Shown here in pieces: positions 2,969 through 38,020 of a DNA stretch of 64,000 nt (position 1 is its first letter; each line of letters opens with the position of its first letter). The stretch lies in assembly GCF_050320075.1 (NCBI RefSeq), contig NZ_CP190018.1; one strand, written 5' to 3'. Origin of the DNA: Escherichia coli (lineage in GTDB: Bacteria > Pseudomonadota > Gammaproteobacteria > Enterobacterales > Enterobacteriaceae). The position numbers and the translations under genes are program-made. The notes under the pieces were generated by a model. That model had not been told where the DNA came from, made no database searches, and worked only from the letters and a program-made list of their open reading frames with translations.

Positions 2969-3405
2969 TTTCCGAATAGAGTGCTCATCGGTGATGTTTC
3001 AATCTGAATTGCGCCGCCGTCTTTGCCTGTTAGCTCGTGATCAACCTTGTCGCGCCATTTATCCTTCTGTCGGTTCTTAAGCCAGAAAATGGCAGCGGTT
3101 GTATCAGGCGGGTAATACTTCTCAAGCGGAGTTTCGACAATTCTGTTTTCAATAACACGAATATCGATATCTGGAGCCACGAAGCCCATAGCGCGTTGAT
3201 AAAGACGATCACTAACTTCTGCATCAGCGACGGCCTTACCCTTTTTTATGGACTCCGAAAACTTAGGATAATCAAGCTTCCACTTGTTAATAGTTGACTC
3301 ACTGACTTCAAAGAAATCAGCAAGTTCTGCATCGGTGTAGCCCAGCAAGCACAGTTTGCGTGCCTGTTCGGCATACGCCTCTTGATACTTTGTTGGGCGC
3401 GCCAT
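2965..3405 (-). CDS. Terminase small subunit
   Basis: 146 aa ORF overlapping the terL start by 4 nt; HTH-like N-terminus; position immediately upstream of terL. Confidence 0.7.
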   Translation of the reverse strand: MARPTKYQEAYAEQARKLCLLGYTDAELADFFEVSESTINKWKLDYPKFSESIKKGKAVADAEVSDRLYQRAMGFVAPDIDIRVIENRIVETPLEKYYPPDTTAAIFWLKNRQKDKWRDKVDHELTGKDGGAIQIETSPMSTLFGK

Positions 3406-3407
3406 GT

Positions 3408-3650
3408 TTATGCTCCGGTGGTGAACAGGTCTAACGCTTCCTTCGATTTACGCACCGCTTCGATAGTGCGGGTCGTGATATCCGAATTAGCGCCGCCTGA
3501 CTGGAAGTGAATTTTGAATAGCTCAAGCTTCAGCTCGTCAGTGCCAATGAACTGAAATGCTTCTTCTGCGGCTGCGTTCTGGTTCATGACCAGCTTGTAA
3601 ATCTCTAACTGGAATTTCTGTTCTTCAGTCATGGGAATAATCTCTGCCAT
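3408..3650 (-). CDS. Hypothetical phage protein upstream of terS
   Basis: 80 aa ORF, same strand, ends 3 nt before the terS start; no recognisable motif. Confidence 0.4.
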   Translation of the reverse strand: MAEIIPMTEEQKFQLEIYKLVMNQNAAAEEAFQFIGTDELKLELFKIHFQSGGANSDITTRTIEAVRKSKEALDLFTTGA

Positions 3651-3754
3651 TATTGGCTCCGTTTATCCGTTAAAAGGGATATCAGTTAAGTTATCCCGTG
3701 CAGGGTATAAGCCATTATCAAAGCCACTCTGTAGGGAATGGATTTTGTGATGGC

Positions 3755-3779
3755 AATAAAAAACCGCCCGTAGGCGGCA
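3755..3779 (-). terminator. Intrinsic terminator-like hairpin (GCCGCC-TACG-GGCGG followed by a U-run on the minus strand)
   Basis: Perfect GC-rich stem at 3764-3778 with an A-run on the plus strand (T-run on minus) at 3755-3762. Confidence 0.4.
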
Positions 3780-3890
3780 AAATTAATGTTTCGTAATTGC
3801 GTCAGATCATTAACCATAGTTATTGTGTAGCTGCTTTGTGTCGTTGGGGTGAACGACGAAAAAGCGAACAACATAATTAATGAGGTGACT

Positions 3891-4421
3891 ATGGAAGTCG
3901 AAAAAATGCTGGTCAAGGACCGGAAGTGTGGCTCTTGCTCAGTTTGCTGTGTTTCTTTGGCAATAGATGAGCCCGAATTGAAAAAAAAGCATGCGGTACC
4001 GTGTACCTATCTCAGGCCTCAGGGTGGTTGCTCGATCTATGCTGATCGACCGTCATTGTGCAAAACATGGCACTGCGGATGGCGGATGATGCCTTTCATG
4101 GGGCCTGCGTTAAGACCAGATCGGTCCAATCTCCTAGTGCGCTTCACGGGAGAATGTTGGATTTTCGGTGATGCTGACGACCAAAGGGAATCTGCATTAA
4201 TGAATAATGATACTTTAAACGCAATGAGCGCTCTGGTCTCGCGTAATATGAAAGTTTCAGTATCAGTTCCAACTAAGCCGGGTTATTGCGACGCTGAACA
4301 TGTCATCAATGATGATATTATGGAGGCGGTAAAAGAACGGTCTTTGTCAAAAGTTAAAGAAATAATTTGGACAGTAATTTGCCGGTGCAAAGTCTCCGCG
4401 ACCAACCCGCGAAAGCAATAA
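3891..4421 (+). CDS. YkgJ-like CxxCxxCC cysteine-cluster protein (putative Zn/Fe-binding), moron on the strand opposite the late genes
   Basis: ORF 3849-4421; preferred start is ATG 3891 preceded by GAGGTG; motif CGSCSVCC plus further Cys residues; opposite orientation to the flanking late operon. Confidence 0.6.
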   Translation: MEVEKMLVKDRKCGSCSVCCVSLAIDEPELKKKHAVPCTYLRPQGGCSIYADRPSLCKTWHCGWRMMPFMGPALRPDRSNLLVRFTGECWIFGDADDQRESALMNNDTLNAMSALVSRNMKVSVSVPTKPGYCDAEHVINDDIMEAVKERSLSKVKEIIWTVICRCKVSATNPRKQ

Positions 4422-4430
4422 ATTAAGCTG

Positions 4431-4460
4431 AACGCCAAATTTATCCGAAATTTGGCGTTA
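4431..4460. terminator. Bidirectional terminator-like hairpin between convergent genes
   Basis: Perfect 12-bp inverted repeat AACGCCAAATTT / AAATTTGGCGTT directly after the stop of 3891-4421 (+) and the stop of 4458-4646 (-). Confidence 0.4.
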
Positions 4461-4646
4461 CATTAATTCAAATGTCGGCATAGCCAACCAATCATCTGGT
4501 AAGCATGTGTTTTCGACAGACTGCATTAACCGCTCATCACTTCGACATGTGAAAGTTTCTTTGTGACCGAGCGAGCCCTGTGAAGAATTAGGGCAATCCA
4601 TATCTTCACCTGTTTTTTTCACTAGAGCGTTATTAATCTCAATCAT
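4458..4646 (-). CDS. Hypothetical small Cys-containing protein (62 aa)
   Basis: ORF ends at the convergent hairpin; no recognisable family. Confidence 0.3.
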   Translation of the reverse strand: MIEINNALVKKTGEDMDCPNSSQGSLGHKETFTCRSDERLMQSVENTCLPDDWLAMPTFELM

Positions 4647-4871
4647 TGTGAGTTCCAGACCTCAGACTAATTAATTTCAACCCCACTATTGCGAGGCTAA
4701 ATCCTGGTATTTGTAATGACTGGCTCTTATCTCAACGCAGCCCCTTACCGCGCGCAAGATGCTCAATATCAAGCATCAGCAATGAGATGTTTAATCTGGA
4801 TTCACTCCAGAAGTGATCACCACCCTGTCTACAGAGCCAGATGTGAAGGATGATGAGTAAAATTATCGCTA

Positions 4872-23716: not shown

Positions 23717-23792
23717 TGGTGCCGATAATAGGAGTCGAACCTACGACCTTCGCATTACGAATGCGCTGCTCTACCAACTGAGCTATATCGGC
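23717..23792 (-). tRNA. thrW: tRNA-Thr (anticodon CGU)
   Basis: 76-nt minus-strand sequence GCCGATATAGCTCAGTTGGTAGAGCAGCGCATTCGTAATGCG...CGGCACCA with cloverleaf. Confidence 0.95.
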
Positions 23793-23906
23793 CCTGAAAG
23801 GACATGTTCACGAACGTGAATCACGGTGGACAAGGTTAAAACTAACCGGGCGATGCGTCAATGGCCTTGTGAATCAAATGGCTACTTTTGCATCACCCGG
23901 TTTTAT

Positions 23907-25160
23907 TTACGCACGAATGGTGTAATCACCAATGCCGATCCACTTGTAAGTGGTCAGTGCTTCCAGCCCCATTGGGCCACGCGCGTGGAGTTTTTGTGTG
24001 CTTACCGCCACTTCCGCACCCAGACCAAACTGGCCGCCATCGGTAAAACGCGTAGAGGCGTTAACGTAAACAGCGGACGAATCCACTTCGTTAACAAAAC
24101 GCTGGGCGTTGCGCATATCGCGGGTCAGGATCGCATCGGAGTGTTGTGTGCCGTGTTCACGAATATGGGCGATGGCATCGTCAAGATCGCTGACGATTTT
24201 AACGTTCAAATCTAATGACAGAAACTCATCGTCATACTCTTCGGCTTTAACAGCCACCACCTTCGCGGGGCCTGCCTGCAACTGCGCCAGCGCAGCTACA
24301 TCTGCGTGTAATGCCACGCTGCTTTCCGCCATTTGCTTGCTTAATGCGGGCAGGAAGCTATCGGCGATGTTTTTATTTACCAGCAACGTTTCTACCGTAT
24401 TACATGTGCTCGGACGCTGAGTTTTTGCGTTGACGATTACTTTCAGGGCTTCAGCGATCTCTGCACTTTCATCAACGTAAATATGGCATACGCCTATACC
24501 GCCTGTGATCACCGGGATTGTCGACTGTTCGCGGCACAGCTTATGCAGGCCAGCGCCTCCACGCGGGATCAGCATGTCGATGTATTTATCCATACGCAGC
24601 ATTTCACTGACCAGCGCACGGTCAGGATTATCAATCGCCTGCACGGCACCCGCCGGTAAGCCGCAGGATTTCAGGGCGTCCTGAATCACCGCTACCGTTG
24701 CAGCGTTAGTGCGACAGGTTTCTTTGCCACCACGCAGGATCACCGCGTTACCGGTTTTCAGGCACAGCGAAGCGACATCAACCGTCACGTTCGGGCGCGC
24801 TTCATAAATCACGCCAATAACCCCCAGCGGTACGCGACGACGCTCAAGACGCAGGCCGCTGTCCAGTACGCCGCCATCGATTACCTGCCCCACCGGATCG
24901 GCGAGATTACACACCTGACGCACATCGTCGGCGATGCCTTTCAGCCGTGCGGGCGTCAGTGCCAGACGGTCAAGCATCGCTTCGCTAAGGCCATTGGCAC
25001 GCGCGTCAGCAACATCCTGGGCGTTAGCGTTGAGGATGATTTCGCTTTGTGCTTCCAGTTCATCGGCGATTTTTTCCAGCACGCGATTTTTTTCGCGGCT
25101 GGAGAGTTGCGCTAATTTATACGAGGCTTGCTTCGCGGCAATGCCCATTTGTTCCAGCAT
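23907..25160 (-). CDS. proA: Gamma-glutamyl phosphate reductase
   Basis: 417 aa; [19 protein letters not shown]... Confidence 0.95.
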
Positions 25161-25171
25161 CAGCCTGCTCC

Positions 25172-26275
25172 TTAACGGGTAATCATGTCATCACGGTGAA
25201 CGGCAACCGGGCCATATTCATATCCCAGTATTGCATCAATTTCTTGCGAGTGGTGTCCGGCAATGCGGCGTAATGCATCGCTGTTGTAACGACTGACGCC
25301 GTGAGCGATATCGCGACCTTCGAGGTTGCAAATGCGGATGACTTCACCACGCGAGAAATTGCCAGTCACGCTTTTAATGCCTTTCGGCAACAGGGAACTG
25401 CCGCGTTCAAGAATGGCGGCAGTTGCCCCTTCATCTACCGTGATTTCACCCGCCGGCGGCGCACCGAAAATCCAGCGTTTACGGTTTTCAAGCGGAGTCG
25501 CCTGGGCATGGAACAGCGTACCGACGGAAATGCCTTCCATCACATCACCAATAACGCCCGGCTTGCTGCCCGCGGCAATAATGGTGTCGATACCCGCACG
25601 GCAAGCCACGTCCGCGGCCTGCAATTTGGTACTCATGCCGCCAGTTCCGAGGCCTGAAACGCTGTCACCGGCAATCGCGCGCAGTGCGTCATCAATGCCG
25701 TAAACATCTTTAATCAGTTCTGCCTGCGGATTGCTGCGCGGGTCAGCGGTATACAAACCTTTTTGATCGGTCAGCAGCAACAGTTTATCGGCACCCGCCA
25801 GAATCGCCGCCAGCGCAGAAAGGTTATCGTTATCGCCGACCTTAATCTCTGCCGTAGCGACAGCATCGTTCTCATTGATTACCGGAACGATATTGTTATC
25901 GAGCAACGCACGCAGGGTGTCGCGGGCGTTCAGGAAGCGTTCACGGTCTTCCATATCAGCACGAGTCAGCAGCATTTGCCCGACGTGAATGCCATAAATC
26001 GAAAACAGCTGTTCCCACAGTTGAATCAGTCGACTCTGCCCTACCGCCGCCAGCAGTTGTTTCGAGGCGATAGTCGCTGGCAGTTCCGGGTAACCCAGGT
26101 GCTCACGTCCGGCGGCGATCGCGCCCGACGTCACAATAACAATCCGATGCCCGGCGGCATGTAACTGCGCGCACTGGCGAACAAGTTCAACGATATGGGC
26201 ACGGTTCAGGCGGCGCGATCCGCCTGTTAGCACACTGGTGCCGAGTTTTACCACCAGCGTCTGGCTGTCACTCAT
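25172..26275 (-). CDS. proB: Glutamate 5-kinase
   Basis: 367 aa from ATG 26275 ([19 protein letters not shown]...); ORF track start 26362 is an upstream extension. Confidence 0.95.
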
Positions 26276-26463
26276 GATTCTCTGCCATTCAATTTTAGGA
26301 AAAATGATATCAAACGAACGTTTTAGCAGGACTGTCGTCGGTTGCCAACCATCTGCGAGCAAAGCATGGCGTTTTGTTGCGCGGGATCAGCAAGCGTAGC
26401 GGCAGTTGTTTACGCTTTTATTACAGATTTAATAAATTACCACATTTTAAGAATATTATTAAT

Positions 26464-26483
26464 CTGTAATATATCTTTAACAA
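26464..26483 (+). promoter_or_regulatory. Pho box (PhoB site) of the phoE promoter
   Basis: CTGTAATATATCTTTAACAA about 80 bp upstream of phoE. Confidence 0.65.
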
Positions 26484-26562
26484 TCTCAGGTTAAAAACTT
26501 TCCTGTTTTCAACGGGACTCTCCCGCTGAATATTCGCGCGTTAATTAAAATCAGGAATGAAA

Positions 26563-27618
26563 ATGAAAAAGAGCACTCTGGCATTAGTGGTGATGGGCAT
26601 TGTGGCATCTGCATCCGTACAGGCCGCAGAAATATATAACAAAGACGGTAATAAACTGGATGTCTATGGCAAAGTTAAAGCCATGCATTATATGAGTGAT
26701 AACGACAGTAAAGATGGCGACCAGAGTTATATCCGTTTTGGTTTTAAAGGCGAAACACAAATTAACGATCAACTGACGGGTTATGGTCGTTGGGAAGCAG
26801 AGTTTGCCGGTAATAAAGCGGAGAGTGATACTGCACAGCAAAAAACGCGTCTCGCTTTTGCCGGGTTGAAATATAAAGATTTGGGTTCTTTCGATTATGG
26901 TCGTAACCTGGGCGCGCTGTATGACGTGGAAGCCTGGACCGATATGTTCCCGGAATTTGGTGGCGACTCCTCGGCGCAGACCGACAACTTTATGACCAAA
27001 CGCGCCAGCGGTCTGGCGACGTATCGGAACACCGACTTCTTCGGCGTTATCGATGGCCTGAACTTAACCCTGCAATATCAAGGGAAAAACGAAAACCGCG
27101 ACGTTAAAAAGCAAAACGGCGATGGCTTCGGTACGTCATTGACATATGACTTTGGTGGCAGCGATTTCGCCATCAGTGGGGCCTATACCAACTCCGATCG
27201 CACTAACGAGCAGAACCTGCAAAGCCGTGGCACAGGCAAGCGTGCAGAAGCATGGGCAACAGGTCTGAAATACGATGCCAATAATATTTATCTGGCAACT
27301 TTCTATTCTGAAACACGCAAAATGACGCCAATAACTGGCGGCTTTGCCAATAAGACACAGAACTTTGAAGCGGTCGCCCAATACCAGTTTGACTTTGGTC
27401 TGCGTCCGTCGCTGGGTTATGTCTTATCGAAAGGGAAAGATATTGAAGGCATCGGTGATGAAGATCTGGTCAATTATATCGACGTCGGTGCTACATATTA
27501 TTTCAACAAAAATATGTCAGCGTTTGTTGATTATAAAATCAACCAACTGGATAGCGATAATAAGCTGAACATCAATAATGATGATATTGTCGCGGTTGGC
27601 ATGACCTATCAGTTTTAA
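26563..27618 (+). CDS. phoE: Outer membrane phosphoporin PhoE
   Basis: 351 aa from [21 protein letters not shown]; porin sequence ending ...VAVGMTYQF. Confidence 0.95.
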
Positions 27619-27656
27619 TGGATATTGCCGGATGTGATGCATCCGGCACATTTCAC

Positions 27657-28115
<459 letters not shown>

Positions 28116-29360
28116 TTAACACAATCGTTTTTCAATCCAGTCTGTTATTTCCTGAAGACCTTTGTCAAAATTCCGATACACCGGGTTAAATGGGATCTCT
28201 AACAATTTACCGTCAGCAGATGATGAGGTGATTAAGCGTGAGTCCTCTTCCGGGCTGAACGGATCGTTCTTCCAGTAGCCTGATAACATTGGCGTTGGGC
28301 AGCGACGTCCCAGCAATCCTTGCACTTTTAATGAATAGCGATTCAGCTCCACGCGCAACGCTTCGTCGGAAGCATCATGCATCCCCAAACGGCTCGCCAG
28401 AACGTCAAGATACATTTCCGGCACCTGTTGCTGGCACTTAAAATCACTCAACAGGGTATGAACTACCGGACCAAGACAGGCAACCGCTTTCAGACGCGGC
28501 GATTCAAGGTATGCCAGACGCACGGCAACGTTAGCGCCGAAACGGAAACCAAAGGCCGCGACGCGAGTGTGATCTACCCACGGTACGTTAGGCAGCGCCT
28601 TTAAGACGTGCTGATGCAACAGGCTGGAGTCCTGGGTGAGCTTCCATTTTGAAGAAAAGCCCACCGACGGCATATCAATAGTCAGCATCGCAATGCCGCG
28701 CGGCGCAAAATAACGTTCATACAGGCTGTAATAGTCCGTCTGCATCGCATCCAGACCACCACACATTAATACTGTCGGGAACGGGCCATCGCCTTTCGGC
28801 ATATGCAAAAAGCCGGTGATGGGCGCACCGCCGGGTACGGTAAACTCCATCTGCCGCATGGTGCCCGGCAGACGCTGAGCGGCCTCTTCATAGGCGCGGT
28901 TTGACAAAGCCTGCGCTTGCTCGGCCAGGTCATCTCCTTTCAGATGAGGATAGGCGGCAATGTTGTACAACGTAGCCGCATGCAGCCAGTGACGACCACT
29001 GAGTTGCGGATCTTCTTCCGCACAGGCTTTTTGTTGCCACACCATCGCCTGGGTGGCCCACTCATAAATCCAGTTGCCACCACGGTAGCCAATCACCGTA
29101 TCGTATAAATCATCGTCGGTACGTTCGGCATCGCTCATCACAATACGTGCCTGGACGTCGAGGATTTCACGTGGGTCAATGCCGCGCCAGATCCACATCA
29201 GACGGTTAATCATGCGATACCAGTGAGGGATGGTTTTACCATCAAGGGCCGACTGCACAGGCGGTTGTGCGCCGTGATTAAAGCGGCGGACTAGCGTCGA
29301 GGTTTCAGGATGTTTAAAGCGGGGTTTGAACAGGGTTTCGCTCAGGTTTGCCTGTGTCAT
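28116..29360 (-). CDS. frsA: Esterase FrsA
   Basis: 414 aa; alpha/beta hydrolase. Confidence 0.95.
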
Positions 29361-29451
29361 GGATGCAGCCTCCAGAATACTTACTGGAAACTATTGTAAC
29401 CCGCCTGAAGTTAAAAAGAACAACGCCCGGCAGTGCCAGGCGTTGAAAAGA

Positions 29452-29910
29452 TTAGCGACCGGAGATTGGCGGGACGAATACGACGCCCATATCCCACGGT
29501 TGTTCGATCCAGGTATCTTGCGGGATATCAACAACATAGTCATCAACCAGCGGACGACCAGCCGGTTTTGCGAAGATGGTGACAAAGTGCGCTTTTGGAT
29601 ACATTTCACGAATCGCAACCGCAGTGCCACCGGTATCCACCAGGTCATCAATAACGATGAAGCCTTCGCCATCGCCTTCTGCGCGTTTCAGCACTTTAAG
29701 CTCGCGCTGGTTGTCGTGATCGTAGCTGGAAATACAAACGGTATCGACATGACGAATACCCAGTTCACGCGCCAGTAACGCACCCGGTACCAGACCGCCA
29801 CGGCTTACGGCAATAATGCCTTTCCATTGTTCAGAAGGCATCAGTCGGCTTGCGAGTTTACGTGCATGGATCTGCAACATGTCCCAGGTGACGATGTATT
29901 TTTCGCTCAT
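29452..29910 (-). CDS. gpt: Xanthine-guanine phosphoribosyltransferase
   Basis: 152 aa; [23 protein letters not shown]... Confidence 0.95.
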
Positions 29911-30170
29911 GTGAAGTGTCCCAGCCTGTTTATCTACGGCTTAAAAAGTGTTCGAGGGGAAAATAGGTTGCGCGAGATTATAGAGATCTGGCGCACTAAA
30001 AACCAGTATTTCACATGAGTCCGCGTCTTTTTACGCACTGCCTCTCCCTGACGCGGGATAAAGTGGTATTCTCAAACATATCTCGCAAGCCTGTCTTGTG
30101 TTGACAACATTTTCTGCTAACCCTGTGACCTGCAATACTGTTTTGCGGGTGATCGACAAGGAGACTTAAC

Positions 30171-31628
30171 GTGTCTGAACTGTCTCAATTATCTCCACAG
30201 CCGCTGTGGGATATTTTTGCCAAAATCTGTTCTATTCCTCACCCGTCCTATCATGAAGAGCAACTCGCTGAATACATTGTTGGTTGGGCAAAAGAGAAAG
30301 GTTTCCATGTCGAACGCGATCAGGTAGGTAATATCCTGATTCGTAAACCTGCTACCGCAGGTATGGAAAATCGTAAACCGGTCGTCTTGCAGGCCCACCT
30401 CGATATGGTGCCACAGAAAAATAACGACACCGTGCATGACTTCACTAAAGATCCTATCCAGCCTTATATTGATGGCGAATGGGTTAAAGCGCGCGGCACC
30501 ACGCTGGGTGCGGATAACGGCATTGGTATGGCGTCTGCGCTGGCGGTTCTGGCTGACGAAAACGTGGTTCACGGCCCGCTGGAAGTGCTGCTGACCATGA
30601 CCGAAGAAGCCGGTATGGATGGTGCTTTTGGCTTACAGAGCAACTGGTTGCAGGCTGATATTCTGATTAACACCGACTCCGAAGAGGAAGGTGAAATCTA
30701 CATGGGTTGCGCGGGGGGTATCGACTTCACCTCCAACCTGCATTTAGATCGTGAAGCAGTTCCAGCTGGTTTTGAAACCTTCAAGTTAACCTTAAAAGGT
30801 CTAAAAGGCGGTCACTCCGGCGGTGAAATCCACGTTGGCCTGGGTAATGCCAACAAACTGCTGGTGCGCTTCCTGGCGGGTCATGCAGAAGAGCTGGACC
30901 TGCGCCTTATCGATTTCAACGGTGGCACACTGCGTAACGCCATCCCGCGTGAAGCCTTTGCGACCATTGCTGTCGCAGCTGATAAAGTCGACGCCCTGAA
31001 ATCTCTGGTGAATACCTATCAGGAAATCCTGAAAAACGAGCTGGCAGAGAAAGAGAAAAATCTGGCATTGCTGCTGGACTCTGTTGCGAACGATAAAGCT
31101 GCCCTGATTGCGAAATCTCGCGATACCTTTATTCGTCTGCTGAACGCCACCCCGAACGGTGTGATCCGCAACTCCGACGTGGCAAAAGGTGTGGTCGAAA
31201 CCTCCCTGAACGTCGGTGTGGTGACCATGACTGACAATAACGTAGAAATTCACTGCCTGATCCGTTCTCTGATCGACAGCGGTAAAGACTACGTGGTGAG
31301 CATGCTGGATTCGCTGGGTAAACTGGCTGGCGCGAAAACCGAAGCGAAAGGCGCATATCCTGGCTGGCAGCCGGACGCTAATTCTCCGGTGATGCATCTG
31401 GTACGTGAAACCTATCAGCGACTGTTCAACAAGACGCCGAACATCCAGATTATTCACGCGGGCCTGGAATGTGGTCTGTTTAAAAAACCGTATCCGGAAA
31501 TGGACATGGTTTCTATCGGGCCAACAATCACCGGTCCACACTCTCCGGATGAGCAAGTTCACATCGAAAGCGTAGGTCATTACTGGACACTGCTGACTGA
31601 ACTGCTGAAAGAAATTCCGGCGAAGTAA
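30171..31628 (+). CDS. pepD: Cytosol non-specific dipeptidase PepD
   Basis: 485 aa; M20 peptidase. Confidence 0.95.
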   Translation: MSELSQLSPQPLWDIFAKICSIPHPSYHEEQLAEYIVGWAKEKGFHVERDQVGNILIRKPATAGMENRKPVVLQAHLDMVPQKNNDTVHDFTKDPIQPYIDGEWVKARGTTLGADNGIGMASALAVLADENVVHGPLEVLLTMTEEAGMDGAFGLQSNWLQADILINTDSEEEGEIYMGCAGGIDFTSNLHLDREAVPAGFETFKLTLKGLKGGHSGGEIHVGLGNANKLLVRFLAGHAEELDLRLIDFNGGTLRNAIPREAFATIAVAADKVDALKSLVNTYQEILKNELAEKEKNLALLLDSVANDKAALIAKSRDTFIRLLNATPNGVIRNSDVAKGVVETSLNVGVVTMTDNNVEIHCLIRSLIDSGKDYVVSMLDSLGKLAGAKTEAKGAYPGWQPDANSPVMHLVRETYQRLFNKTPNIQIIHAGLECGLFKKPYPEMDMVSIGPTITGPHSPDEQVHIESVGHYWTLLTELLKEIPAK

Positions 31629-31684
31629 TTATTTGATTTGCTGCCGGATGGCGTTTAATCGCCTTCCGGCAGTTTCATCCTTCA

Positions 31685-32240
31685 TTATCCTTCGATAAAA
31701 GCCATCCCTGTAAATGTCCGTCTCGGGTTGCCACGTTCAATCTGGTGATGGAACATTCGCCGCTGCGATTTCAGCACCGCGCTATTTTCCTGTTGCTGTT
31801 GTTCCAGCTTCCAGGCAATCAGCAATCGCGCCAGCCGCTTGTTAGCATGCCCAGAAACAAGTTTTTGCGCCCATGATGAGGCCGATACGGACTCGGACAA
31901 ATCCACTGAATAGTGCCGCACCAACTTTCGCTTAATGCCCATGCGTTATCGCCATCCAGAGAAATCAGCGCCGAACGCAGCGTGTCAGAGCAGCGGCCCG
32001 TTTCTGTTTCCAGCACCGTTACCGCGACGTCTTGCCGGGTAAAAACGACCAACAGAGAATAACGCTGCGCCAATCGGGTAGCCGCGTCCGGGGTGTAAAT
32101 CTGGCATCCCTACTACGCGCTGCATGTTGGGTAAATTTGCCGTGGTGTGTAATTGTTGGATCGCTAAACTCTCGATCCACAGGTCATCAGATGCGATGGT
32201 AAATACCGCATCGGATAAGGGACGAATATATTTGCCCATG
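31685..32240 (-). pseudogene. prfH: Remnants of an rtcB-like / prfH ribosome-rescue pair (fragmented)
   Basis: Three overlapping ORF fragments in different frames: RtcB-like N-terminal fragment, PrfH-like middle and PrfH C-terminus. Confidence 0.7.
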
Positions 32241-32484
32241 TATCATTCCATTTATACTCGTCATACTTCAAGTTGCATGTACTGCGACTCGAATTATTTA
32301 GAGTATATAAATATAAAAATCAGGAAATGGCAGACGAATCCAGGGCAAGAAAAAAAGAATTAATCCTGGAAAGGTCTGCAAAGAGTCATTGATAAAGGAT
32401 TTGTCATGATTTACCTCCTTGCAGTTTGTGGAATAAGAAAACGCGCACATACTAGGCGGGCGTTATTTTCATTGCAAGCTGGAT

Positions 32485-32937
32485 TTAATGTTGCGGTTTA
32501 TATCGTATATAAAAATTAGTAAACCACGCTCCCCGGCATTCAACGCGCTGCTGCTTAACTGTCTGAAAACCATAACGTTCAAAAAAGGGTTTTGCGGTTA
32601 TGCTGGCATCTACCGTTAGTTCGGATTCAGACTTAATCAAAGGTTTTAACAAAGCGCTGGCAACCCCACGGCGGGTGTATTCAGGGTCAACAAATAACAT
32701 ATCGATATAATGTTCAACGCAGGTAATAAAGCCGACCAGTTTTGCATTAATGACTGCAACCCGCACTTGTGATTTCGCGAGTTTCTCCTTCCAGCGAGAT
32801 TCGTCAATCTGCGCCCAGGCGGCAATTTGTTGTGGTGAATAATGCTGACTGGCGGTCATCGTAACCGCTCTAATGAAAATAGCGCATAGTTGCTGAAAAT
32901 CGCCAGGCTGATAATCTCTTATTTGTATGTTATTCAT
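32485..32937 (-). CDS. yafP: GNAT acetyltransferase YafP
   Basis: 150 aa; last gene of the dinB operon. Confidence 0.9.
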   Translation of the reverse strand: MNNIQIRDYQPGDFQQLCAIFIRAVTMTASQHYSPQQIAAWAQIDESRWKEKLAKSQVRVAVINAKLVGFITCVEHYIDMLFVDPEYTRRGVASALLKPLIKSESELTVDASITAKPFFERYGFQTVKQQRVECRGAWFTNFYIRYKPQH

Positions 32938-32946
32938 AATATAAAT

Positions 32947-33345
32947 TCAAAAACGCATGCGAAACGCTTCTGCCATTTTTCCAATTTTATGCATTTGGTT
33001 GTTATCTCGAGCCAGTTTATGAGGTTCAGGCTTCAGAATGGCAATGAGCAACCATGCTTGCTCATCAAACGCACCCTGACAATATACCAAATGCGCTTCG
33101 TCATTCGTTCTGCTGAATTGGCGCAACTGTGGCGGAAATGGATTATTCACATTTGCCAGATGAATATGAGCAACTCGCTCAAATTTGATTAATGGCCAGG
33201 TAAACGAGTCGTCGTAGAGTGCATCGCGACCAAATATATCTGGCAAAACACCGTCACGCTTATAGGAAATAAAATCCGCCGTTAACGCATCAAGTTCCTC
33301 TGCTGTAAGTTGCAGGCGAATAAGTTTTGTTTTGAATACCCGCAT
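32947..33345 (-). CDS. yafO: YafO ribosome-dependent mRNA interferase toxin
   Basis: 132 aa; follows yafN. Confidence 0.9.
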   Translation of the reverse strand: MRVFKTKLIRLQLTAEELDALTADFISYKRDGVLPDIFGRDALYDDSFTWPLIKFERVAHIHLANVNNPFPPQLRQFSRTNDEAHLVYCQGAFDEQAWLLIAILKPEPHKLARDNNQMHKIGKMAEAFRMRF

Positions 33346-33347
33346 CC

Positions 33348-33641
33348 TTATTCCTTAAAGTCATTGAAATCATCATCCGTCATATCATTAAGATATTGTT
33401 CAGCGCGGCGTGTAATTTCCTCTAATCTTGCGGCACTCGGACGGAAGCGCGCCTTCACCAGTTTTTTCTCCTCTTGTTCTGCAAGCATGTCCATTAACGC
33501 TTCGAATGCGCTGGCACTTAAGAGATATCCTGCGGGGCGATTATTAGAAAGAACCGCAACCGGTTGATCAATAAAGTATTTTGCTGGATTTTTACGTAAC
33601 TCAGTGATATTGACCGATTTTTCAGCGAGAATTCGATGCAT
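33348..33641 (-). CDS. yafN: YafN antitoxin
   Basis: 97 aa; Phd/YefM-like. Confidence 0.9.
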   Translation of the reverse strand: MHRILAEKSVNITELRKNPAKYFIDQPVAVLSNNRPAGYLLSASAFEALMDMLAEQEEKKLVKARFRPSAARLEEITRRAEQYLNDMTDDDFNDFKE

Positions 33642-33692
33642 ACAGTGATACCCTCATAATAATGCACACCAGAATATACATAATAGTATACA

Positions 33693-34748
33693 TCATAATC
33701 CCAGCACCAGTTGTCTTTCCATTTGCGGGTCAAGCAACGTCACATGCAGCCCCACCAGCCGCACACCGCGCCCGCCGCGACGTTCATCCCAGGTTTTACG
33801 CGCGGTGGCAATTAAGTCAGCTTTATTCAGCCGCGGCCAGACGTGCTCCTGAGTGGTTTGCTGAAAATCATCAAACTTTAATTTCACCCCCTGGCGAGCA
33901 ATCAGTAAATCAGGTTTTACTTTTGCCAGACGGCGTTCAAGTTCCGGGTACAGCCGCTCGATAATCGCTTCACATTCAGACCAGTGATGAATATCTTCCG
34001 CCATCGTGCGTTCCACGCCGACGGATTTTCGCAACCGTTCGCTGTTAACGTCGCGCTCGTCAATCCCCTGACTACGCTCCCACAAAATGCGGCCAAATTT
34101 GCCAAAACGTTTGAGCAGAGTCACCAGATCACACTTTTGCACATCACCGCAGGTCCGCAGCCCCATCGCTTCCAGTTTTGCCGCCGAGACTTTGCCGACG
34201 CCGGGGATTTTTGCCAGCGGTAAGGTTTGTAAAAATGTCGGAACTTCTGCCGGCGTAATCACAAACTGGCCGTTGGGTTTATTCATGTCGGAGGCGATTT
34301 TGGCGAGAAACTTTACTGGTGCCACGCCCGCAGACGCCGTCAGTTGCAGCTCGCTGAAAATCGTCTGGCGGATTTCCTGGGCGATGAGGGTCGCAGAACC
34401 GTGGCAATGGACGCTATCGGTGACATCGAGATAGGCCTCATCCAGTGACAACGGTTCAATGCGCGAGGTGTAGCGCGAGAAGATTTCACGGATATGATTT
34501 GAGGCTTCTTTGTAGGCGTCAAAGCGCCCCGGAAGCAAGGTGAGATGTGGGCATAATTTGAGCGCCATCCCAGTAGGCATAGCGCTACGTACGCCAAATT
34601 TACGCGCGGGATAATTGGCGGTGCTGATCACCCCCCGACGTTCGCGGCTGCCGCCAATAGCAATAGGGATATCGCGCAGGGCGGGATTGTCGCGCATCTC
34701 CACTGCGGCGAAAAAGCAGTCCATATCCACATGAATGATTTTACGCAT
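33693..34748 (-). CDS. dinB: DNA polymerase IV
   Basis: 351 aa; [33 protein letters not shown]... Confidence 0.95.
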
Positions 34749-34762
34749 TGCTCACCTCTCAA

Positions 34763-34782
34763 CACTGGTAAAGTATACAGTG
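34763..34782 (-). promoter_or_regulatory. LexA box of dinB (CACTGTATACTTTACCAGTG)
   Basis: Minus-strand SOS box about 15 bp upstream of the dinB ATG. Confidence 0.85.
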
Positions 34783-34818
34783 ATTTCAGGGTTTGAGAAA
34801 TGCGTAAAGATTCAGCAT

Positions 34819-35515
34819 CTAGCGCGTTCGCTGCGAAAGCACCTGCTGCTTATCCAGCTTTTGCACCAGCGGCTGCACCACTTTATCCCCATGCTGACCA
34901 AAGTATTGATACAGCGTATCGGACGCACTTTTGGTCAGCACCATAATCTCAATGCGTCGGTTGCCCGCGCTTTGCGGATTTTTCGCGTCCAGCAGCATCT
35001 GGTCCGCCATCGCGCTCACCTGCATCACTTTATCTTCCGGCATTCCGGCCTCTTCCAGCACCCGACGAGCCGAAAGCGCGCGATCGCCCGAAAGGTTCCA
35101 GTTGTTGTAGATATTGTTTTTGTAGGCCATCGCATCGGTATGCCCGGTAATAATAATTTTGTTATCGAGCGAGTCGAACACTGGCGCGAGCTCCACCAGC
35201 AAAGTTTTAAAGAACGGCATAATCTGTGCGCTGCCGCGTTCAAACATATTGCGGTTCTGGTCATCTTTAATCAGCACGCGCAGTCCCTGGGGAACAATCT
35301 CCATCTCCAGATTCGCTTCCATATGTGCATCACGGGCAATGGTGTTGATACTGGTCGCCAGCTCGCCAAGCTCAGTAGCGGATTTCTTCTTCAGCAGCGC
35401 CGTTTTCTCATTGACGTCACGCGCTTTTTTCTCCGTCTCTTCCGGCACCGCCACGGTGGCAGGTTTTGGCGGATGAGACAGGCTGATTTTATTTAACGGC
35501 GACAACCCGCCGCCA
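34819..35515 (-). pseudogene. lafU: lafU (mbhA) remnant, MotB-like, N-terminally truncated (Flag-2 remnant)
   Basis: OmpA-like peptidoglycan-binding C-terminal region; upstream part of the ORF is not protein-like and overlaps lfhA. Confidence 0.7.
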
Positions 35516-37288
35516 TTGAAAATCGACTGCCCGTGCAGCGCGGCGATAATGCTTTCACGCTCGGATTTACTGACGCTGTTGACAATCAACTTTATCGTCG
35601 TCACCAAAGGGGCCGAGCGTATTTCCGAGGTTTCTGCCCGCTTTACCCTGGACGCGATGCCCGGCAAACAGATGGCGATTGACGCCGATCTTAACGCCGG
35701 GTTGATCAACCAGGCGCAGGCGCAAACCCGGCGTAAAGATGTTGCCAGCGAGGCCGATTTCTACGGCGCAATGGACGGGGCATCGAAGTTTGTGCGCGGG
35801 GATGCCATCGCCGGGATGATGATTCTGGCGATCAACCTGATCGGCGGCGTCTGTATCGGGATCTTCAAATACAACCTGAGCGCCGATGCCGCCTTCCAGC
35901 AATATGTGCTGATGACCATCGGCGACGGCCTGGTGGCGCAGATCCCGTCCCTGCTGCTTTCCACCGCGGCGGCGATTATCGTCACCCGCGTCAGCGACAA
36001 CGGCGATATTGCCCATGACGTGCGTAACCAGTTGCTGGCAAGCCCGTCGGTGCTCTACACCGCCACCGGGATCATGTTTGTGCTGGCGGTTGTGCCGGGG
36101 ATGCCGCATCTGCCGTTTTTGCTGTTCAGCGCCCTGCTTGGTTTTACCGGCTGGCGGATGAGCAAACGCCCGCAGGCGGCGGAGGCGGAGGAGAAAAGCC
36201 TCGAAACGCTGACCCGCACCATCACCGAAACCAGCGAGCAACAGGTCAGTTGGGAGACTATTCCGCTGATCGAACCCATCAGTTTAAGCCTCGGTTACAA
36301 ACTGGTGGCGCTGGTCGATAAAGCGCAGGGTAACCCACTCACCCAGCGTATTCGCGGCGTGCGGCAAGTGATATCCGACGGCAACGGCGTGCTGCTGCCG
36401 GAGATCCGTATTCGGGAAAACTTCCGCCTCAAGCCCAGCCAGTACGCCATATTCATCAACGGCATTAAGGCCGATGAAGCGGATATTCCGGCGGATAAAC
36501 TGATGGCCCTGCCCTCCAGCGAAACCTACGGCGAGATTGACGGCGTGCTGGGGAACGACCCGGCGTACGGGATGCCGGTGACCTGGATCCAGCCCGCGCA
36601 GAAAGCGAAAGCGCTGAATATGGGGTATCAGGTGATCGACAGCGCCAGCGTGATCGCTACCCATGTGAACAAGATTGTGCGCAGCTATATTCCTGATTTG
36701 TTTAACTATGATGACATCACGCAGTTGCATAACCGTTTGTCGTCGATGGCACCGCGCCTGGCGGAAGATTTGAGCGCGGCGCTCAATTACAGCCAATTGC
36801 TGAAAGTGTACCGGGCGCTGCTGACCGAAGGCGTTTCCCTGCGCGATATTGTCACCATCGCCACCGTGCTGGTCGCCAGTAGCACAGTGACCAAAGATCA
36901 TATCCTGCTGGCGGCCGATGTGCGCCTGGCATTGCGGCGCAGCATTACCCATCCGTTCGTTCGCAAGCAGGAGCTGACGGTGTATACGCTGAATAATGAG
37001 CTGGAAAATCTGCTCACCAACGTGGTGAATCAGGCGCAACAGGGCGGGAAAGTGATGCTCGACAGCGTGCCGGTCGATCCGAATATGCTCAACCAGTTCC
37101 AGAGTACGATGCCGCAGGTAAAAGAGCAGATGAAAGCGGCGGGGAAAGACCCGGTGCTGCTGGTGCCGCCGCAGTTGCGTCCTTTGCTGGCGCGTTATGC
37201 AAGGTTGTTTGCGCCGGGGCTGCATGTGCTGTCGTATAACGAAGTGCCGGACGAGCTGGAGTTGAAGATTATGGGGGCGTTGAGTTGA
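35516..37288 (+). pseudogene. lfhA: lfhA remnant, FlhA-family export-gate protein lacking its N-terminus (Flag-2 remnant)
   Basis: FHIPEP-family sequence from about residue 45 of the ORF; garbled N-terminal 40 aa. Confidence 0.75.
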
Positions 37289-37371
37289 TTGAGGAATCTT
37301 TTCCATGCTTTGCAGCACCTGACACCATTAATTGACGTCACACTGCAAAGAGACTACGATGACACCATACA

Positions 37372-37671
37372 ATGACGTCATGGATTGATAGTATGATTAA
37401 GGTCAGCGCGCTAGGCTCTCGTCATAGAAAAACATTCGACGATGTAATGACGGAGCCGCCAAAATCTGGAATTAAATGGGATGATGTTGTTGCACTCATT
37501 AAAGCTGTGGGTGGAACAATAAAAAATAACAACGGCTCCAGACGAAAATTTCAGATTGGAACGACCAAATTCAGCACACATGAGCCACATCCAAAGAATG
37601 TGATGGATAAAGGCGCAGTAGCAGGTCTTAAGGAGTGGTTTGTTAACTGTGTAGGGGTAGATTATGAATAA
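37372..37671 (+). CDS. HicA/YcfA-family toxin-like protein (start uncertain)
   Basis: GSRRKFQIG...THEPHPKNVMDKGAVAGLKEW resembles the HicA G-S-H...PHPKKD core; followed by a HicB-like gene. Confidence 0.55.
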   Translation: MTSWIDSMIKVSALGSRHRKTFDDVMTEPPKSGIKWDDVVALIKAVGGTIKNNNGSRRKFQIGTTKFSTHEPHPKNVMDKGAVAGLKEWFVNCVGVDYE

Positions 37672-38020
37672 AGCATCGAACATTATCACAATTAAAGGTC
37701 AACCAGCCGCAGTGACATTTGAAGCCGATATCAACGCATTTCGCGGCAAGTTCCTCAATGTAAACGGTTATTGTGACTTTGTAGCCACAAGTATTGAGGC
37801 ATTATATCGTGAAGGCGAAAGCGCGCTGGATGAGTGGATGGCGGATTGTGAAGAGGACGGTATTGCCCCTTTTCGTGAAGAAGAAGAGCAAAAACGCCTG
37901 ACGCTTCGTGTTCCTCATCACATTGATTCGCGGCTGACCATCGTCGCCAGACAACATTCCATTTCAAAAAACCAGCTCATTGTTGATGTCTTAGAACGTG
38001 AGTTTTCAGCCCAGATGTAA
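37664..38020 (+). CDS. HicB-family antitoxin-like protein with C-terminal RHH-type region
   Basis: 118 aa; ATG after AGGGGTAG; overlaps the upstream stop; C-terminus RLTLRVPHHIDSRLTIVARQHSISKNQLIVDVLEREF. Confidence 0.55.
   Translation: MNKASNIITIKGQPAAVTFEADINAFRGKFLNVNGYCDFVATSIEALYREGESALDEWMADCEEDGIAPFREEEEQKRLTLRVPHHIDSRLTIVARQHSISKNQLIVDVLEREFSAQM

Follow-up and report, generated by a model that had tools for sequence, protein, structure and literature searches.

The Flag-2 lateral flagellar deletion scar of Escherichia coli: one exact junction on different haplotypes and in several genera

The subject of this analysis is the site of the Flag-2 lateral flagellar cluster in a 64,000-nucleotide stretch of Escherichia coli DNA (NCBI RefSeq assembly GCF_050320075.1, contig NZ_CP190018.1), referred to in its entirety as the window. 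At this site, between dinB and hicAB, two 5'-truncated genes stand back to back: a remnant of lafU on the minus strand (34819..35587; codons 53-307 plus the stop) and a remnant of lfhA on the plus strand (35588..37288; codons 132-697 plus the stop), with no interior Flag-2 genes between them. The setting, with its dinB side and its yafL side, is that of the chromosomal Flag-2 site. The DNA of the window is chromosomal and belongs to E. coli. Many complete genomes match a 4.5-kb query centred on the remnants at 100% identity, and in these RefSeq annotates dinB, lafU, an flhA pseudogene 'missing N-terminus' and hicA/hicB.

Protein alignment to the intact 307-residue LafU of E. coli strain 4/4, alongside blastn and Pfam searches, shows that the lafU remnant (LafU') encodes residues 53-307. 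It keeps the OmpA domain (PF00691) and has lost MotB_plug (PF13677), both of which are present in the intact protein; with residues 1-52 have gone the transmembrane helix, the conserved Asp39 and most of the plug region. The lafU start called by the Prokaryotic Genome Annotation Pipeline (PGAP) is a GTG at 35604, inside antisense lfhA, such that the annotated open reading frame (ORF) carries a chimeric 5' extension (35588..35604, minus strand; seen in the RefSeq annotation of an identical strain and in the ORF list) and its first six codons read V-T-T-I-K-(L). The RefSeq lafU of that strain (L001 4020-4805) corresponds to window 34819-35604, and the mechanical ORF runs on to a TTG at 35709. 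The lfhA remnant (LfhA'), identified by protein alignment, its FHIPEP match (PF00771) and its RefSeq pseudogene status, comprises residues 132-697 of the intact 697-residue protein and covers positions 104-656 of the 657 in the FHIPEP profile, the first 103 positions (~131 residues) being missing; it lacks the first transmembrane helices, and its reading frame is still open. A functional FlhA/FHIPEP export gate has a complete N-terminal transmembrane and cytoplasmic domain, which LfhA' does not, and of the components of a MotB-type stator (a transmembrane helix with its Asp, the plug and the OmpA-like domain) the OmpA domain alone is left in LafU'. Neither remnant can work as a flagellar part, since LafU' has no membrane anchor, no proton-binding Asp and little of the plug, LfhA' is without its first transmembrane helices, and no partner proteins are encoded. 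An earlier note, made from the letters of this DNA, had described lafU as N-terminally damaged and lfhA as lacking its N-terminus, and had named full-length genes as the finding that would overturn this; both N-termini are indeed missing, by alignment and by Pfam.

The intact Flag-2 locus of strain 4/4 (record L002) has the same neighbours as the remnants in the window; it is bounded by lfhA (697 aa) and lafU (307 aa), which enclose ~40 flagellar and cargo genes. In blastn comparisons, window 33693-35587 matches L002 43289-41395 and window 35576-37283 matches the lfhA end, the two matches overlapping at 35576-35587. A three-way DNA alignment, together with these end points, resolves the overlap as an imperfect 12-nt direct repeat (35576..35587), CTGTTGACAATC on the lafU side and CTGATGATCATC on the lfhA side, with 9/12 positions matching; the true junction within it is the ATC at 35585-35587, the sole exact microhomology (3 nt). 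In terms of codons, W52|I53 of LafU is joined to I131|N132 of LfhA. Relative to strain 4/4, 38,138 bp are missing (L002 3257-41394), and relative to strain AHB5, 34,904 bp. The junction string is identical across 7 deleted E. coli strains.

Hence, there is hardly room for doubt that a deletion joined lafU after codon 52 to lfhA codon 131/132 and removed ~35-38 kb (~40 genes), taking with it both promoter-proximal gene halves plus all other Flag-2 genes. We regard it as nearly certain, likewise, that the region is a non-functional Flag-2 deletion scar: no evidence against this identity was found, and no intact strain was seen with a full-length lafU or lfhA matching the window. The deletion of an intervening cluster postulated in the earlier note is thus borne out by intact loci, which carry 34.9-38.1 kb between the two points. 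Its placement of the junction near 35,516-35,709 holds insofar as the remnants diverge there, but that zone is the overlap of two maximal ORFs and not the junction itself. The alignment to an intact locus that it proposed for locating the end points and any repeat at the join did yield the end points and showed both genes to be 5'-truncated; the repeat, however, proved weak (3 nt exact, 9/12 imperfect).

The scar as a feature of the window is already known and ordinary, a textbook piece of the 'genomic archaeology' of E. coli. The fhiA-mbhA (lfhA-lafU) remnant of K-12 is credited to Ren et al. 2005 in the citing papers PMC6993521 and PMC3032704. In the available text of the former, De Maayer et al. 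2020 summarize the work of Ren et al. as describing a deletion that has its ends, marked by direct repeats, inside lfhA and lafU. They themselves count 531 Enterobacterales strains with the lfhA/lafU pseudogene pair, mainly from taxa in which intact flag-2 also occurs, and attribute the en bloc lfhA-lafU deletions to direct repeats (PMC6993521). A separate study saw no intermediate attrition forms of Flag-2. What is unexpected is the population genetic pattern at the junction.

The junction is present in 4,072-4,085 of 5,426 complete E. coli genomes (~75%; 4,072 by a 44-nt junction query), and interior Flag-2 sequence is present in ~1,290-1,330 of them. The lfhA' region (1701 nt) was compared between 7 deleted and 7 intact alleles, all of which are gap-free and open. 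Pairs of deleted alleles are up to 109/1701 nt apart, with a synonymous divergence (dS) of ~0.2, and the deleted alleles are polyphyletic among the intact ones. Flank haplotypes 3-6% apart are each found in deleted and in intact form. For example, no difference separates the deleted strain YZ_2_1 from the intact strain ARS-C301 in either flank (1701 nt of lfhA, 1895 nt of dinB-lafU), a single nucleotide separates K-12-type deleted alleles from the intact strain 1506, and deleted 1008S13 equals intact VL7S7 on the lafU side.

The window itself has such a counterpart in the intact strain AHB5, found by chimeric queries, with 0/1701 nt and 0/1895 nt differences in the flanks up to the junction. 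Outside the scar, the two differ by 1 single-nucleotide polymorphism (SNP) in 23744-34818 and 3 SNPs in 37289-64000 (4 in ~38 kb); overall, 4 SNPs in 41 kb plus the 34.9-kb cluster separate a near-clonal pair with no recombination footprint. Because this near-clonal intact strain has the same flanks up to the junction, the window's lineage has lost Flag-2 recently in comparison with how old the local haplotype is.

The nearest common SNP, C/T at 35596, lies 9 nt from the junction, and its alleles were counted with state- and allele-specific 44-45-nt queries (~5,300 records). Deleted records comprise 1995 with C and 2054 with T (C frequency 49.3%), and intact records 618 with C and 659 with T (48.4%), which corresponds to an r2 of ~6e-5 between the SNP and the deletion state. 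The allele tracks the surrounding haplotype and not the deletion state, and in intact strains the haplotypes are continuous across the break point. Core genes of E. coli are expected to diverge by a few percent at most. The dinB-lafU-lfhA region (window 33693-37288 compared with L002-L021), in turn, shows very high divergence (dS ~0.2, up to 6.4% of nucleotides) and strongly mosaic alleles, pointing to a hot region of recombination or to haplotypes introgressed long ago.

These patterns bring up the possibility of a single ancient deletion, identical by descent everywhere, which would have persisted as a long polymorphism or moved between lineages while its flanks were overwritten by conversion tracts ending at the heterology. 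The high mosaicism of the region in both states speaks for such a history, as does the report that the Flag-2 region is a recombination region in sequence type 131 (ST131). However, for no linkage to be left across ~5,300 genomes, conversion tracts would have to end sufficiently often within 9 nt of the junction. In at least 3 haplotypes, both flanks would have to have been exchanged with no footprint remaining, and the intact strains, as noted, show no haplotype break at the boundary. Overall, descent from one event is a serious contender, which we would nevertheless back at somewhat less than even odds.

The state of the remnant genes bears on a different proposal, namely that the truncated genes are kept for an acquired function, e.g., with the C-terminal domain of LfhA, now soluble, or an OmpA-like LafU' in the cytoplasm modulating the primary flagellum. 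This would account for frames that stay open; both are open in each of the 8 deleted E. coli alleles as well as in the scars of Kluyvera, Citrobacter and Atlantibacter described below. The ratio of nonsynonymous to synonymous divergence (dN/dS) in lfhA' is low, at 0.039 among deleted pairs against 0.030 among intact pairs. However, deleted alleles match intact ones exactly or almost exactly, and the low ratio is therefore inherited from the intact gene. Further, LafU' is without any export signal, RefSeq treats lfhA as a pseudogene, and no convincing promoter or ribosome-binding site was found at the junction by reading, a promoter scan giving only weak 9/12 matches. The corresponding copy of Escherichia albertii is frameshifted. 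An acquired function is thus highly improbable; the remnants decay after the deletion, as the E. albertii copy illustrates.

That copy belongs to the E. albertii type strain (NBRC 107761), in which the junction string is identical to that of E. coli. Its lfhA' (L027 ~3010-4700), in contrast to the 8 deleted E. coli alleles, is disrupted by a frameshift and several indels; it looks like the same scar in an older or more rarely overwritten form. A genome contig scan with full LfhA was dominated by the generic FlhA motif DAMPGKQM and was useful for Citrobacter werkmanii (intact) and E. albertii (scar); the other genera were reached through protein searches and contig look-ups. A search with the chimeric LafU' protein recovered truncated LafU proteins without MotB_plug and with the N-terminus (V/M)TTIKL|IVNSVSK from Citrobacter gillenii, C. 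amalonaticus, Kluyvera ascorbata, Atlantibacter hermannii and Enterobacteriaceae H11S18. The genera with scars also have intact forms, full-length LafU among them. In the DNA of the scarred loci, lfhA' and lafU' stand back to back and are joined at exactly the E. coli position, within flanks that are genus-specific and diverged at synonymous sites as expected for each genus. In Kluyvera, the lafU/dinB regions of deleted and intact loci are ~98.6% identical, which indicates that both are native. A further protein search brought up LfhA proteins truncated to this same start from Atlantibacter subterranea, 'Enterobacter sp. Ap-916' (~70% identity to the query, the LfhA' of Kluyvera) and a metagenome contig; the accompanying LafU' proteins read KL|IMGAVTEEER and KL|ILSSVNQKER, with the same join codon and quite different retained DNA on the lafU side.

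The junction position is therefore common to at least 8 taxa, while the microhomology shared across them shrinks from the ATC of E. coli to AT (2 nt); in C. amalonaticus, Atlantibacter and the distant taxa, the following T must derive from the ATT codon of lfhA. The only break-point DNA conserved across taxa is that of the deleted sides, i.e., the codons for LafU ...ALFMTLW and LfhA ...FVVFIILMII, each of which is the end of a transmembrane helix. For the single ancient deletion, this comparison cuts both ways. A junction position conserved where the retained lafU-side DNA is not is what descent predicts and what a sequence-specific hot spot does not. At the same time, descent requires a very long presence/absence polymorphism or transfer between genera across LfhA proteins only 70-93% identical, and identical runs near the junction between genera are only ~11-12 nt long, too short for homologous recombination. 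One old deletion does not easily explain a scar at the same codons in several genera and on unrelated E. coli backgrounds.

The conserved deleted sides also bear on whether Flag-2 might be an excisable and re-integrating island, in which a site-specific recombinase would release a circle and switch the state with the flanks untouched. Such an element would explain identical flanks in both states, the absent linkage and the fixed junction, and an imperfect inverted repeat, G.G.TGTTTAT.A..CTG (13/18 matches, by eye), can be drawn from the conserved DNA at the two break points. However, that repeat is marginal (~p 0.03, estimated) and is explained by hydrophobic codons, and in place of identical att core repeats the ends share only the 2-3 nt of ATC (E. 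coli) or AT (other genera). The annotation of the intact locus in strain 4/4, with 47 genes from lfhA to lafU, includes no recombinase, and the reciprocal (circle) junction occurs in 0/5,426 genomes and on no plasmid, although assemblies are a weak test for a transient circle. The uninterrupted haplotypes of intact strains across the boundary are a further objection. Hence, we consider a mobile island very unlikely, if marginally less so than a retained function of the remnants.

Three further candidates for a determinant at the break points were rejected. Palindromes found there (GACGCTGT..ACAGCGTC around the lafU break and GATGATCATC before the lfhA break) are not conserved in Kluyvera or the distant taxa. 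A XerCD/dif-like site at the lfhA break has 15/28 matches by eye, a poor XerD arm and the break outside its central region, and was judged a chance resemblance. As for a role of RayT and repetitive extragenic palindromic (REP) sequences, rayT lies beside lfhA in many E. coli, but neither in the window, which has hicAB, nor in the Kluyvera, Citrobacter and Atlantibacter loci.

The reading that we favour, with a probability of roughly 0.45-0.55, is one of many independent origins: the same precise deletion would have arisen time and again on different E. coli haplotypes and in other genera as well. Recurrence needs no added assumptions to explain all the population patterns, and it agrees with the published remark that scars occur mainly where intact loci persist, which would make the scars short-lived. 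In mechanistic terms, the deletions could have arisen by site-preferring illegitimate recombination with 2-3 nt of microhomology (AT/ATC) at the codons for transmembrane-helix ends; a topoisomerase-type or other site-preferring illegitimate event is conceivable as pure speculation. The 'deletion' of the earlier note may not have been one single historical event.

Several points weigh against recurrence. There is no mechanism in sight for a precise deletion that repeats itself, a lack which counts in favour of the single old event, and the microhomology is only 2-3 nt. The absence of a recombinase gene and of the reciprocal junction, described above for the island, tells against recurrence as well. 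Eighteen longer exact direct repeats (9-14 nt) exist between the lafU and lfhA regions, none of which was used. Among the unused repeats is an 11-nt exact one, GATGCCCGGCA, ~70 nt beyond both break points (window 35656-35666 and the lafU interior in L002), which is nearly collinear with the junction repeat in strain 4/4. Ordinary microhomology deletions use the best short repeats and have differing end points; here, the 18 longer repeats were passed over and at least 8 taxa share one end point. Moreover, all the population patterns could be imitated by identity by descent if homologous recombination then replaced the flanks as far as the heterology. As for the sample, the E. coli genome collection is clonally sampled, such that its counts do not equal independent events, and the base-by-base comparison extends to just 8 deleted and 9 intact alleles of E. 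coli, plus one or two loci in each other genus.

If recurrence in at least 5 Enterobacteriaceae genera is true, it would imply a conserved, undescribed hot spot or a site-preferring recombination at the ends of the cluster. It would amount to a built-in, irreversible off-switch for lateral flagella, a recurrent switch and not a historical accident, and to a new mechanism of precise large-scale gene loss in enterobacteria. If the scars instead go back to a single old event, the absent linkage at 9 nt would show that homologous recombination exchanges flanks right up to a 35-kb heterology, which would be informative for models of bacterial recombination and for the use of indels as phylogenetic markers.

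Opposite lfhA, two long ORFs lie on the minus strand, one of 224 aa (35567..36241) and one of 344 aa (36284..37318), both in the codon-aligned antisense frame of lfhA. Neither has a Pfam match. In 1000 synonymous-codon shuffles of lfhA, an antisense stop-free run of at least 224 codons arose in 100% and one of at least 344 codons in 82%. Across 14 E. coli alleles, 213/249 of the variable sites fall at third positions of lfhA, the frame that the polymorphism thus tracks. The antisense ORFs are artefacts of the amino-acid and codon composition of lfhA, and their dismissal as artefacts in the earlier note was correct. That they are real genes, or that lafU and lfhA are full length, has a negligible chance of being right: the existence of long ORFs, and nothing else, speaks for it, whereas the N-termini are missing and ORFs of this kind are expected from the codon composition of lfhA.

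The neighbourhood of the scar is variable in other respects. On the left, dinB (33693..34748, minus strand; ORF list and RefSeq) is the conserved neighbour of the Flag-2 site, and between it and yafP lies the yafN-yafO toxin-antitoxin pair (32947-33641). This pair is missing from strains 4/4, ARS-C301, E21845, YZ_2_1 and D1, in which dinB and yafP overlap directly, and is a further presence/absence polymorphism within the same few kb as the scar. On the right, the annotated hicA/hicB toxin-antitoxin pair (37372..38020, plus strand) lies between lfhA' and yafL, in the slot that holds rayT, a REP-associated tyrosine transposase, in other E. coli, deleted and intact; hicAB and rayT are alternative cassettes independent of the Flag-2 state. 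Farther to the left, beyond ~23744, the window no longer matches AHB5 (window 1-23743 compared with L111): the thrW tRNA site of AHB5 is occupied by an integrase remnant, a gene for an RNA-directed DNA polymerase and AbiE genes, and that of the window by a different island. Additionally, the lafU-lfhA junction region turns up in 13-18 plasmid records of the E. coli collection, which may represent pieces of chromosome carried by F-prime-like plasmids, or else contigs assigned wrongly.

Among known systems, the closest is the published account of the lfhA/lafU pseudogene pair. The present analysis goes beyond the available text of De Maayer et al. 2020 (PMC6993521) in finding the same nucleotide junction across genera, haplotypes common to both states and no linkage. 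The window shares with the fhiA-mbhA remnant of K-12 the same two truncated genes between dinB and yafL, with the interior cluster missing, and a junction string identical to that of the K-12-like strain NBRC 3301 (L003). It differs in 68/1701 nt of lfhA' and in having hicAB instead of rayT beside it.

A second deletion scar lies in the window itself at 31685-32255, where truncated prfH and rtcB pseudogenes meet at an imperfect 9-nt repeat, TGCCGGGTA / TGTCGGGTA (junction ~32033-32041), and ~1.0 kb of strain 4/4 (L002 44135-45152) is missing. In both scars, a deletion between two genes has left two pseudogene halves at a short imperfect repeat. However, the rtcB-prfH join used a 9-nt repeat with 8/9 matching, whereas the Flag-2 join used 3 nt and ignored 18 longer repeats.

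Elements within or beside genes that are excised developmentally or site-specifically offer the remaining comparison. The skin element of Bacillus subtilis and the nifD and fdxN elements of Anabaena each have their own recombinase, and their excision restores one gene. What Flag-2 has in common with them is that tens of kb are lost precisely and repeatably, with fixed end points; unlike these elements, it is without a recombinase that could be found, and its removal leaves two broken genes.

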